A DNA stretch of 64,000 nucleotides from a virus. Both the position numbers and the translations under genes were made by a program. Of the stretch, positions 59,358 to 62,150 are shown piece by piece; the first letter of the stretch is position 1, and the number at the start of each line of letters is the position of its first letter. The notes under the pieces were generated by a model. The model was given only the letters and a program-made list of their open reading frames with translations. It did no database searches and had not been told where the DNA came from. The DNA lies in IMG/VR virus record IMGVR_UViG_3300043446_004500, positions 89,678 to 153,677 of that record. One strand, 5' to 3'.

Positions 59358-59831
59358 ATGGAAAACCTTGACATCAAACCAAATACAACAGTTTTAGTAT
59401 TAAATTCAACATATGAACCGATCAATCTTGCATCGGGTCGTAGAGCAATTGTATTATTACTGAAACAGAAGGCACAACGTCTCTCAAGTCGTGTGATTCG
59501 TCTTTTGAATTATGTGAAGATTCCATTCTCCAAAATTGTTTCCCATAAACCTTCAAAGAGTGCAATTTATAAAAGAGATCACAATAAATGTCAGTATTGT
59601 GGTTCAACAAGTCGATTAACCATTGACCACATCATTCCAAGATCTAAAGGTGGCGGAGATTCTTGGTTTAATCTTGTAGTTGCTTGCTCCACTTGCAATA
59701 CAAAGAAAGGAGATAAGTTGCTGGAACATAGTGGTCTTAAGTTGATAAAACAACCTAAAGCACCAATGAATAAAGTTCAGTTTTCATTACTTGAGAGTAA
59801 CAATACTGAATGGCAACAGTACACTTTTTAA
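59358..59831 (+). CDS. HNH endonuclease (McrA-like)
   Basis: VLVLNSTYEP, RDHNKCQYCG..LTIDHIIPRSKGG..WFNLVVACSTCNTKKG. Confidence 0.88.
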   Translation: MENLDIKPNTTVLVLNSTYEPINLASGRRAIVLLLKQKAQRLSSRVIRLLNYVKIPFSKIVSHKPSKSAIYKRDHNKCQYCGSTSRLTIDHIIPRSKGGGDSWFNLVVACSTCNTKKGDKLLEHSGLKLIKQPKAPMNKVQFSLLESNNTEWQQYTF

Positions 59832-59875
59832 ACTGTCCATTGACCCTTGACTTCCGCAGTCAGGGGTCTTATAGT
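59819..59875 (+). promoter_or_regulatory. Repeated early promoter element, copy 2
   Basis: GTACACTTTTTAAACTGTCCAT, hairpin GACCCTTGACT/AGTCAGGGGTC containing TTGACT, 17 nt, TATAGT. Confidence 0.72.
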
Positions 59876-59904
59876 ATCTGTATTGAGTCCGCAAAACCCG
59901 CATT

Positions 59905-60507
59905 ATGTACTCCGCAAAAGTTACATTGAAGTTTGATTCCACTTGGGAACAGACTCGTGGAATCTATGATGAGGAGATGATTCCAGAGGAACACATTACT
60001 TTTGAAGCACCTGTAGAAGATATTAACAGCATTCAACTTTTCCAACTGTTTGCAAAGTTTGCTGGTGCAATAGGACACAATGAAGCAGGTATTGCTAAAG
60101 GTGCTGCATATGTTGCATTTAATGATATGAGAAGCACTGAAGAAATGCGTAAGACCGCAGAAGAGTATGACCTCAAACTGATTGAGGATTATCGTGATGA
60201 AGTTTGTAAGTTGGAAGCAGAAATCCGTGATCTGAAAGCAAAACTCTCCCGTTTTGAAAATCCTGATAATCCCCAATATACGGATGAGGAAATGGATGCT
60301 CTCTGTGCGGAGAATGAAGTTACTGCTGATACTCTAAAAAATGCTGATGTAGTTTGTAAGGATTGTGGAAGTAAATATGGACATTATTCAGTTTCTTGTT
60401 CTTCAACTTGGACTGGAAAATGTGATGTTTGCGGTCAAGAAAAATCAGTAACAGAGTCAAGGGATTGGAATTACTTGAAAGAAGGTATTGATTATTTGTC
60501 TAAATAA
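59905..60507 (+). CDS. Hypothetical protein with coiled coil and C-terminal Zn ribbon
   Basis: CKDC...CDVC. Confidence 0.65.
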   Translation: MYSAKVTLKFDSTWEQTRGIYDEEMIPEEHITFEAPVEDINSIQLFQLFAKFAGAIGHNEAGIAKGAAYVAFNDMRSTEEMRKTAEEYDLKLIEDYRDEVCKLEAEIRDLKAKLSRFENPDNPQYTDEEMDALCAENEVTADTLKNADVVCKDCGSKYGHYSVSCSSTWTGKCDVCGQEKSVTESRDWNYLKEGIDYLSK

Positions 60508-60569
60508 GAGTGTCTATAGGAACCGCAATCTCTACAGACAAAAGATTAGGTGCTTTCGGGCACCTTTTC
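60508..60569 (+). ncRNA. Candidate antisense small RNA to the HNH 5' leader
   Basis: TAAATA at 60501-06; hairpin TGTCT..AGACA with loop AACCGCAATC; terminator; 15-nt complementarity to 60585-60599. Confidence 0.55.
60548..60569 (+). terminator. Rho-independent terminator
   Basis: AGGTGCT-TTCG-GGCACCT-TTT. Confidence 0.8.
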
Positions 60570-60572
60570 TAT

Positions 60573-60580
60573 TATAAATA
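60573..60580 (+). promoter_or_regulatory. Late promoter TATAAATA for the HNH gene
   Basis: Exact consensus 25 nt before the ATG. Confidence 0.75.
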
Positions 60581-60605
60581 CTAATGCGGTTCTTGTAGAA
60601 TAAAA

Positions 60606-61271
60606 ATGAACTATCTAAAGGTTTATTGTAACCTTATCAGGAAAGCAGAGAACAGAACTCCTCCTAAAGGTTATACTGAAAAGCATCATACATTTCCAAA
60701 AAGTATCTTTGGGAATAATAATAGAGTTGTTATTCTCACAAATAAAGAACACTATATTGCTCACGCATTACTTGAAAAAATTTGTATTAAAAGATATGGA
60801 ATAAACCATAAAAATACATTAAAAATGTCTACTGCCCATCTTTTAATGAAATCCGGTGATAGATATTATAATTCTCATCTATATGAGGTAGCAAGGATGA
60901 GAGTTAGTAACTCTATGAAAGGGAATAAAAGAGGATTAGGTCGCAAAGTTACGGAAAAGGAAAAAGAAAATTTGAGAATAAAAGCAACTGGTAGAGGTCA
61001 TAGTAAAGAAACAAAAAGAAAATTAAGTAAGTATTTTAAAGAAAATCCAAGTCGTTCTACTTTAAATAAAGGAGAAAAATACAAATGGAAAAATATAGAT
61101 GGTAGTGAATTTTGTGGGACTGTTGGTATGTTAATTAGAAATTTTCCAGAACAAAAATTGGATTCGGCGTATCTGCACAAAATGATACAAAAAAATATTA
61201 AAGGTTTTGATATTAAAGGTTATAACACATATAAAGGATGGACAGTTTATAAATCGCACACAATCACTTGA
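60606..61271 (+). CDS. Free-standing HNH homing endonuclease with NUMOD3-like repeats
   Basis: YTEKHHTFPKS..N..VVILTNKEHYIAHALL; HSKETKRKLS. Confidence 0.85.
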   Translation: MNYLKVYCNLIRKAENRTPPKGYTEKHHTFPKSIFGNNNRVVILTNKEHYIAHALLEKICIKRYGINHKNTLKMSTAHLLMKSGDRYYNSHLYEVARMRVSNSMKGNKRGLGRKVTEKEKENLRIKATGRGHSKETKRKLSKYFKENPSRSTLNKGEKYKWKNIDGSEFCGTVGMLIRNFPEQKLDSAYLHKMIQKNIKGFDIKGYNTYKGWTVYKSHTIT

Positions 61272-61296
61272 AACCAAGTGCCTTTTGATGTATAAT
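61240..61296 (+). promoter_or_regulatory. Repeated early promoter element, copy 3
   Basis: GGACAGTTTATAAATCGCACAC, CACTTG/CAAGTG hairpin with TTGAAA, 17 nt, TATAAT. Confidence 0.65.
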
Positions 61297-61317
61297 GACT
61301 TTATAGATAAAAAGCAA

Positions 61318-61509
61318 ATGAAAGCAAACACTTATTTAATCTTGGAAAGAGCAGTGCAGGAAGGGGCACTTATGGGTTATAGGAGAGCATTTAAGTATGT
61401 TCAAGATCCATCAGAAGAAGCAATCGTAGAAGCAATCGTAGACGGTGTAATGCTGACTGTAAGTGAGGTTTTTGTATTTGATGATGTAAAGGGAGAGAGT
61501 TATGAGTGA
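61318..61509 (+). CDS. Hypothetical protein
   Basis: MKANTYLILERAVQEG after the promoter. Confidence 0.65.
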   Translation: MKANTYLILERAVQEGALMGYRRAFKYVQDPSEEAIVEAIVDGVMLTVSEVFVFDDVKGESYE

Positions 61510-61702
61510 AAGAGCACAAGAGTTTATGAAATGTATTTGGGATGCCCGTGAAATGGGAGCAGATACAGAAGAGAAACTGGTAGCATATATTCTGCGTCTA
61601 GCATCAGGACAAATCAGGTCTTATACTGCACAAAATGACTTGATTGTATTGGACCAAAAAGATATGACCCACCTTGCAAATGAGATTGAGAACCTAAAAT
61701 GA
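61502..61702 (+). CDS. Hypothetical protein
   Basis: GGAG SD; overlapping-gene operon. Confidence 0.65.
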   Translation: MSERAQEFMKCIWDAREMGADTEEKLVAYILRLASGQIRSYTAQNDLIVLDQKDMTHLANEIENLK

Positions 61703-61938
61703 AACTCATTGAGTATAGACAAAAAGAGGACTTTGGAACCGAACACATCTTCACTCTACTCAAAGGAAAACGAAGGTCTTTTATTCAGGTGAGTTTCTCT
61801 TTTAATGATTTTCCTGGACGACCTTATCTTCAAATCTCATTTGGAAACAATAGTTTGATTGATATTCTCTTCTGGGTTTGGAGATTTGGTTTCTCTTTGA
61901 CCGTTTTTGATTACACTTGGGATTCTTGGGACAAATGA
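61699..61938 (+). CDS. Hypothetical protein
   Basis: ATGA overlap. Confidence 0.65.
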   Translation: MKLIEYRQKEDFGTEHIFTLLKGKRRSFIQVSFSFNDFPGRPYLQISFGNNSLIDILFWVWRFGFSLTVFDYTWDSWDK

Positions 61939-62150
61939 AAGTCACTGAACATAACCTTGATGACTGTGATTTAACAGTACAAGAACTTAAAGAGGTGATT
62001 CGTATTGTAATGAAAGAACTTAAGTCCTATAAGGATGATGTATCAACTCAAATGTATTATGCAAAAATTGTTGGAAAACTTTATGGACTTGCACACACTT
62101 TAGACGATTTTCAAACTGGCACAGAAGAGACCACAATCACCGACCTTTGA
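61935..62150 (+). CDS. Hypothetical protein
   Basis: MKVTEHNL; overlaps the previous stop. Confidence 0.55.
   Translation: MKVTEHNLDDCDLTVQELKEVIRIVMKELKSYKDDVSTQMYYAKIVGKLYGLAHTLDDFQTGTEETTITDL

Follow-up and report, generated by a model that had tools for sequence, protein, structure and literature searches.

The window analysed here is the final 64 kb (64,000 nucleotides) of a 153.7-kb IMG/VR virus contig (IMGVR_UViG_3300043446_004500) from a T4-like freshwater cyanophage, and it carries the gene for a putative free-standing homing endonuclease that is preceded by a candidate RNA control module of ~110 nt. The module is composed of two promoter-like boxes (P1 and P2), a hairpin, an intrinsic terminator, and a short leader, arranged in tandem on the + strand in the following order (window coordinates):

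60500–60506, + strand: P1, outer late-promoter-like box CTAAATA (TAAATA at 60501–60506), with a transcription start (+1) predicted at G60512, where hairpin 1 begins.
60512–60539, + strand: hairpin 1 (G60512–C60539, with one A·C mismatch), which holds the 5′ arm (60513–60527) and displays the variable seed in its loop.
60548–60569, + strand: intrinsic terminator GGTGCU-UUCG-GGCACC (hairpin, 60548–60565) with a UUCG loop and then a U run (TTTTCTATT), located within the loop of the long-range stem.
60573–60580, + strand: P2, the TATAAATA late promoter of the endonuclease, with a +1 predicted at G60586, base 2 of the 3′ arm (T60585–A60599).
60585–60599, + strand: leader serving as the 3′ arm, complementary to 60513–60527 and ending 6 nt before the AUG at 60606.
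60606–61271, + strand: free-standing HNH-type homing endonuclease (221 aa; phrog_655 at E 3.5e-27).

The TAAATA box, the hairpin, the UUCG terminator, the second late promoter, and the ATG had all been placed at these coordinates by an original prediction made for this DNA, and each is borne out by the sequence. The TAAATA box overlaps the TAA stop codon (60505–60507) of the preceding open reading frame (ORF; 59905–60507), and the segment 60548–60569 scores as terminator-like (3 found vs 0.4 expected). The contiguous 15-nt pairing of 60513–60527 with 60585–60599, with two G–U wobbles as its sole non-Watson–Crick positions, was confirmed and lies far beyond chance: the inverted repeat consists of 13 Watson–Crick and two G–U pairs, with the arms 57 nt apart. 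When the segment 60495–60625 is folded as a single RNA, the free energy is −37.5 kcal/mol (z = −5.5), and none of 200 shuffles folds as well. This minimum-free-energy structure, that of a read-through transcript, has the terminator hairpin nested within the 15-bp long-range stem. The helix spans positions −21 to −7 on the leader of ~20 nt and leaves the AUG free, with a weak (U)AGAG/AGAA element and no clear Shine–Dalgarno sequence.

The 221-aa ORF is ~37% identical in a tblastn search to genes annotated as homing endonucleases in T4-like Klebsiella and Escherichia coli phages, and has a close homologue in the nearest cultured relative, the freshwater cyanomyovirus Synechococcus phage S-SRM01 (Kyanoviridae). 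Its earlier designation as HNH/NUMOD3 holds in part: membership in the homing endonuclease family phrog_655 and a visible HH…N…H motif agree with it, whereas the NUMOD3 match is weak (17.3 bits, under the Pfam cut-off) and no Pfam HNH model matches the ORF in a Pfam search. The HNH assignment is based on the motif and on the tblastn matches to homing endonuclease annotations of T4-type phages. No solved relative of the nuclease was found in a sequence search of the PDB.

In ~80 homologous genes from IMG/VR, the upstream 130 nt have a common order of elements, namely [A/C]TAAATA, 5 nt, hairpin 1, terminator, TATAAATA, 4–5 nt, TGC followed by the complement of the hairpin 1 loop, (A/T)TAGA(A/G)TAGAA, and ATG. 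The arm and the leader occur as 35 distinct sequence pairs, all of them compensated, mostly over 13–15 bp (range, 9–21). In a 38-sequence alignment, the 15-bp long-range helix is 90% paired, with 10 of the 15 pairs changed on both sides, and shows a covariation of 0.507, as compared with 0.18 in shuffles (0.507 is reached by 0 of 500); when the partners are slid by 1–3 columns as a control, pairing falls to 32–45%. The covariation between loop and leader, which had been put forward as a check on the original prediction, is therefore strong. In the helices, the pairs comprise 462 Watson–Crick, 27 G–U (24 with G in the 5′ arm), one A–C, and nine others. Because a G–U pair on the + strand would read as A–C on the other strand, the 27 G–U pairs against a single A–C indicate + strand RNA as the selected molecule, with the caveat that many of the G–U pairs share one conserved position by descent, while at least seven different positions hold G–U.

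The local elements are similarly constrained. The local stem of hairpin 1 is 94% paired, with 4 of its 5–6 pairs changed on both sides. Among 44 modules, all seven pairs of the terminator stem covary; taken together, hairpin 1 and the terminator are 93% paired, with 11 of 12 pairs changed on both sides. Alignment column 31 is paired in 38/38 sequences within hairpin 1, as opposed to 13/38 within the long helix, so that the local hairpin, i.e., the state in which the seed is exposed in the loop, is selected for itself. Judging from these alignments, it is close to certain that the selection on arm/leader pairing acts at the RNA level, as originally proposed and now supported by both the G–U bias and the compensated pairs; the proposed loop-exposed seed likewise corresponds to an arm lying in the loop of a conserved, covarying hairpin. 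By analogy with characterized systems described below, the pairing very probably constitutes a functional RNA-level mask of the leader. The seed diverges faster than the scaffold, since, in module pairs whose scaffolds are ~92% identical, identity is 74% in the seed and 92% in the terminator. Rfam contains no family that matches the module, HNH-associated RNAs included in the comparison, and the region 59500–62000 gives three chance-level hits (E 0.41–5.6), none of which falls on the module.

Throughout the 153.7-kb contig, the 17 copies of TATAAATA are all located ≤60 nt upstream of a same-strand ORF start (17/17), and for this reason TATAAATA is regarded as a real start signal in this phage. 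Enrichment of the box in the 64-kb window alone is not significant (5 found vs 7.3 expected), the positional test on the whole contig being the informative one. The variants NATAAATA and NCTAAATA also precede many genes of the contig. Within the modules, the TATAAATA box is invariant and is placed between the two arms in all aligned copies. The outer box, [A/C]TAAATA, is found in 44/44 modules, always 5 nt ahead of the purine at the base of hairpin 1 and across many insertion contexts, and the geometry from P1 to the hairpin is the same as that from P2 to the leader (same register). In the S-SRM01 copy at 192413, where the stop codon of the upstream gene falls outside the box, P1 is nevertheless retained. 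P1 is thus, on its conservation, a candidate outer promoter as conserved as the inner one, and the earlier claim that a promoter-like box and a terminator bracket a short unit fits what we found, the bracketed unit being ~57 nt long.

A covariance model of the module (R1) detected a single copy in this contig and six strong ones in S-SRM01. The S-SRM01 copies lie ahead of the HNH homologue, of several endonucleases of the GIY-YIG type, and of another, unclassified ORF, and their six seeds all differ. More copies, found in the flanks of the fetched loci, precede GIY-YIG/NUMOD genes. One module scaffold thus heads unrelated nuclease families, HNH and GIY-YIG. Among GenBank phages searched by blastn, the module was found in S-SRM01 only, the matches in Acinetobacter being short and due to chance, and the S-SRM01 genome paper mentions neither the module nor late promoters nor transcriptomes. 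As a separate observation on that genome, the annotated start of the homing endonuclease gp297 (NC_070963, 192466–193167; 2487–3188 in our locus L121) lies inside the terminator hairpin of its module; the deposited start is probably ~18 codons too early, with a conserved ATG (MNYLKIYCNL…) at 192520.

A variant architecture is present in the loci L005, L025/L027, and L047/L052/L054/L061, in which an arm of 9–10 nt (e.g., ATGTCTGGGG / CCCCAGACAT, in the upstream 110 nt) is carried in the loop of a larger hairpin, GTGGGC…G(T/G)CCCAC, directly before (N)ATAAATA. These variants lack an outer TAAATA box, and the majority also lack the U run. In four other loci (L012, L016, L017, and L048), a partial tandem duplicate of the inner promoter (e.g., TATAAACTCTTATAAATA and TATAAAGTATTATAAATA) is located ~35–50 nt upstream of the endonuclease ATG, lengthening the loop by ~10 nt and leaving the arms unchanged. 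A comparison with the contigs of three runs of the same study yielded a single contig, 151 nt long, with a related module (8 differences and 4 gaps relative to window 60501–60608). Its source, a run of lake water, bears a metatranscriptome label but is probably DNA, so that the contig is silent on expression; there the module stands in another context, ahead of another ORF (ATG GTA AAT CTC AAC).

The design of the module resembles most closely the hairpins of T-even phages. In the T4 genes for I-TevI, I-TevII, I-TevIII, and segB, and in mobE of Aeromonas phage Aeh1, a late promoter is situated inside a hairpin that hides the ribosome-binding site on transcripts initiated upstream (PMC2988022). 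The present module shares with them the T4-like phage host, the homing endonuclease gene, and the position of TATAAATA between the helix arms, so that the late transcript lacks the 5′ arm. It differs in the 57-nt distance between the arms, which accommodates a conserved intrinsic terminator; in a 5′ arm equipped with a covarying hairpin and an in-register promoter-like box of its own; in the reach of the helix, which covers −21 to −7 rather than the Shine–Dalgarno sequence and AUG; and in the use of one scaffold by unrelated nuclease families, whose covarying seeds are private to each. In addition, Dassa et al. (2009) described, in ocean and lake metagenomes, 'fractured gene' loci in which free-standing endonuclease genes of the GIY-YIG and Vsr-like types are preceded by 5′-untranslated-region hairpins; TATAAATA lies within 10 of these, and two complementary motifs stand ahead of the endonuclease genes, an arrangement that the authors interpret as cis translational control (PMC2677866). 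Those loci are comparable to ours in the environmental phage-like setting, the endonuclease genes, and the TATAAATA box within the hairpin; the text of that paper, as far as consulted, describes no outer promoter box, embedded terminator, alternative hairpin, covariation statistics, or small RNA. Accordingly, the core logic of a late promoter nested between mask arms is already known and the arrangement is partly anticipated in the literature, and the new elements are an embedded terminator, an alternative hairpin that covaries, and an outer promoter-like box in register with the inner promoter.

Following the T4 precedent, early and middle transcription arriving from upstream would mostly end at the terminator; on the transcripts that read through, the arm would fold onto the leader and block loading of the 30S subunit on a short leader with a weak Shine–Dalgarno sequence; and only the RNA started at P2, which is devoid of the arm, would be translated, late in infection. 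The terminator, the covarying hairpin, and the outer box together lead us to predict, in addition, a discrete antisense RNA of ~57 nt, and the added promoter–hairpin–terminator unit most simply reads as encoding such an anti-leader RNA. As the conservation suggests, P1 would be a late promoter firing at the base of hairpin 1, yielding with the terminator a two-hairpin RNA of ~57 nt, the loop of which could pair with the P2 mRNA at its 5′ end, damping translation in trans, with a private seed for each endonuclease. The predicted RNA (60512–60569; 57–58 nt) folds into two hairpins with −17.7 kcal/mol (z −3.55). When it is cofolded with the predicted late mRNA, a 14-bp intermolecular helix is preferred (ΔΔG, −10.5 kcal/mol), and cognate duplexes range from −17 to −26 kcal/mol against a mean of −9.6 kcal/mol for non-cognate ones, also within one genome. 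We judge trans action of the predicted ~57-nt RNA to be about evenly poised, and dual cis-plus-trans control by a portable module of ~110 nt has, in our estimate, a roughly even chance of being correct. The wider proposal, that each homing endonuclease gene of these T4-like cyanophages may possess a private, separately promoted and terminated antisense RNA of ~55 nt, with seeds that diversify and keep co-resident cassettes orthogonal (six in S-SRM01), is put forward more tentatively, at a little less than even probability.

Several observations weigh against the dual control proposed here. P1 often has the form CTAAATA, and only 11 of the 22 CTAAATA copies in the contig are upstream of an ORF; the box usually overlaps the stop codon of the upstream gene, which could contribute to its conservation. 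The stem ends at −7 and spans neither the AUG nor a clear Shine–Dalgarno sequence, and the faster divergence of the seed may merely reflect a pairing constraint that leaves the sequence itself free. Orphan hairpin–terminator units were not found in this contig or in S-SRM01, a covariance model of the hairpin and terminator (R2) giving only the full-module copies (one and six, respectively). Nor was any module found that is inverted relative to its neighbours, a copy that would depend on P1 for the arm; among the loci that had emerged as inversion candidates from a crude ORF screen, the three inspected turned out to have short same-strand ORFs ending at P1. Furthermore, the variants L025, L047, and L005 keep the arm/leader pairing without a visible P1, and mostly without the U run, so that cis masking may be the common core.

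These points bear most directly on the possibility that the module is a cis-only mask as in T4, the arm acting solely on transcripts that read through the terminator, which we consider possible but somewhat doubtful. The outer TAAATA would then be kept as a stop codon for the truncated upstream gene, as an AT-rich single strand, or as a cassette junction, and hairpin 1 would keep the arm from misfolding until the leader is made, or stabilize the 3′ end of the upstream message. A T4-type mask explains most of the design, because the long-range pairing is the minimum-free-energy fold of any read-through transcript; it is the documented mechanism for I-TevI/II/III, segB, and Aeh1 mobE (PMC2988022), the environmental endonuclease hairpins with an internal TATAAATA are interpreted likewise by Dassa et al. 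(PMC2677866), and the P1-less variants retain the pairing. Read-through RNA should also be available, since a same-strand ORF of ≥60 aa lies directly upstream in 51 of 61 evaluable modules, and the others that were checked have shorter same-strand ORFs ending at P1. A mask acting only in cis, however, leaves unexplained the invariance of [A/C]TAAATA and its fixed 5-nt distance to the purine in 44/44 modules, including the 192413 copy of S-SRM01 with the stop outside the box, and also why covariation is better in the stem of the local hairpin than toward the long helix's outer end; moreover, a conserved terminator would leave few read-through RNAs on which a 15-bp mask could be selected. A positive or processing role, in which a duplex at the 5′ end of the late mRNA guards against 5′-end-dependent decay by RNase E/J or makes an RNase III site, and thereby sets the half-life, is improbable in our view. 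The helix does begin at the predicted +1 of P2 and end 6–7 nt before the AUG, which it leaves free, and antisense duplexes reportedly protect mRNAs from RNase E in phage-infected cyanobacteria (Stazic et al., NAR 2011). Nevertheless, a 15-bp helix reaching to −7 on a 20-nt leader should hinder 30S binding, 13–15 bp is short for RNase III, and all characterized relatives of the arrangement repress translation (PMC2988022).

At the DNA level, the inverted repeat around P2 might be a protein operator for autorepression by the endonuclease, or the recombination site of an invertible promoter; the repeat does bracket P2, and I-TevI represses its own late promoter through an operator resembling the homing site (PMC2988022). 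This is very improbable: the asymmetry of 27 G–U to one A–C is expected for one-strand RNA rather than duplex DNA, nuclease families that are unrelated and have different DNA-binding domains use the same scaffold, different seeds occur at the same insertion site (the window, L084, and L088), and there is no recombinase gene in the ~810-bp cassette. The original prediction had also raised the alternative of an RNA cofactor of the nuclease, travelling with the mobile gene; a role of the hairpin RNA as a guide is considered together with it. The unit and a nuclease gene are indeed always adjacent, without orphan units in the two genomes searched, but the same module stands before unrelated HNH and several GIY-YIG/NUMOD nuclease types, which disfavours this reading; in addition, the variable segment matches only its own leader 60 nt away and no foreign target, and Rfam gave no match to HNH-associated RNAs. 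We therefore regard a cofactor role as barely credible.

Compared with small-RNA systems, the predicted anti-leader RNA has only partial counterparts. In IS10/Tn10, RNA-OUT is a small, stable stem–loop RNA read from the other strand of the same DNA, and its loop pairs with the extreme 5′ end of the transposase mRNA near the ribosome site, acting in trans on all copies. The likeness to RNA-OUT/RNA-IN is that a mobile element limits its own DNA-cutting enzyme, through an RNA that is here a predicted one; unlike in IS10, both arms lie on the + strand in tandem as an inverted repeat rather than on opposite strands, and the G–U bias is that of the + strand. Type I toxin–antitoxin pairs such as tisB/istR-1 and symE/symR have adjacent small RNAs that are partly complementary to their targets. 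Here too, a short predicted RNA is encoded beside a potentially harmful gene and is complementary to the leader of its mRNA, whereas the gene in question codes for a homing endonuclease of a lytic phage and the two units are in same-strand tandem, so the label 'type I toxin–antitoxin' fits by complementarity alone, as an analogy. The antisense transcript CfrI of cyanophage S-PM2 is reported to be ~225 nt long and to come off the opposite strand, unlike the present tandem hairpin–terminator unit with its covarying seed. CfrI links psbA to the homing endonuclease F-CphI (Millard et al. 2010, cited in PMC10690425), and it thus resembles our case as a non-coding RNA of a T4-like cyanophage tied to a homing endonuclease gene.

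Homing endonucleases need near-silence to persist in a compact phage genome, and T4 achieves it by a cis hairpin with a nested late promoter. The present module is a portable, highly conserved elaboration of that design, and it occurs in many uncultured freshwater cyanophages as well as in one that is cultured. If P1 fires, a new layer would be added: each mobile gene would have a trans-acting anti-leader RNA of its own, with apparently orthogonal seeds. Such same-strand, tandem-encoded antisense control of a mobile nuclease would be a rare case of small-RNA control inside the late programme of a lytic phage itself, and would constitute a natural library of orthogonal small RNA/leader pairs, i.e., ready-made RNA regulators.

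The module and the endonuclease gene are enclosed by two phage genes, with a further promoter-like element at the right-hand end of the insert:

59905–60507, + strand: upstream phage gene at the left flank (200 aa; phrog_6458, function unassigned), with its stop codon within the outer TAAATA box.
61268–61296, + strand: sigma-70-like outward promoter TTGAAA-17-TATAAT (11/12 matches), overlapping the stop codon of the endonuclease.
61318–61509, + strand: downstream phage gene at the right flank (63 aa).

In the empty alleles of this site (L085, L086, L090, and L093–L095), a comparison of the loci showed that the two flanking genes overlap by ATGA, with zero intergenic DNA. Because the flanking genes abut in this manner in relatives devoid of the endonuclease, the segment ~60505–61317 is, on this comparison, a single inserted mobile homing-endonuclease cassette. 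Occupied alleles at the same site are those of the window, L084, and L088/L089, the presence/absence polymorphism being precise between the conserved flanking genes. The outward promoter at 61268–61296 would probably restore transcription of the downstream 63-aa gene, in line with T4, in which promoters embedded in homing endonucleases serve the downstream genes (PMC2988022). A small hairpin (CACTTGAAACCAAGTG) accompanies the outward promoter at 61265–61296. The cassette is preceded, at a distance of one gene, by another HNH endonuclease ORF, unrelated to the first (59358–59831; 157 aa; PF01844, E 1.4e-16; phrog_16726), ahead of which there is no control module.

Other landing sites were noticed among the fetched loci. 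One that recurs is at the end of an hsp20-like gene (…VPEHHKRKDYL*), where L023, L024, L045, L050, and L055 have cassettes with different seeds. This site was examined in the present contig (G000:C1:32780–33100, outside the window) to ask whether P1 is a native promoter of the target site; a 53-aa ORF is located there, and the contig offers neither a cassette nor an empty allele. In L080, at ~2370–2400, the module directly follows an apparent tRNA T-arm and 3′ end (GGAGTTCGAATCTCCTCC), suggesting that cassettes can also land behind a tRNA gene. In the occupied alleles of the hsp20-like site, the right flank has a terminator overlapping a perfect TTGACT-17-TATAAT promoter.

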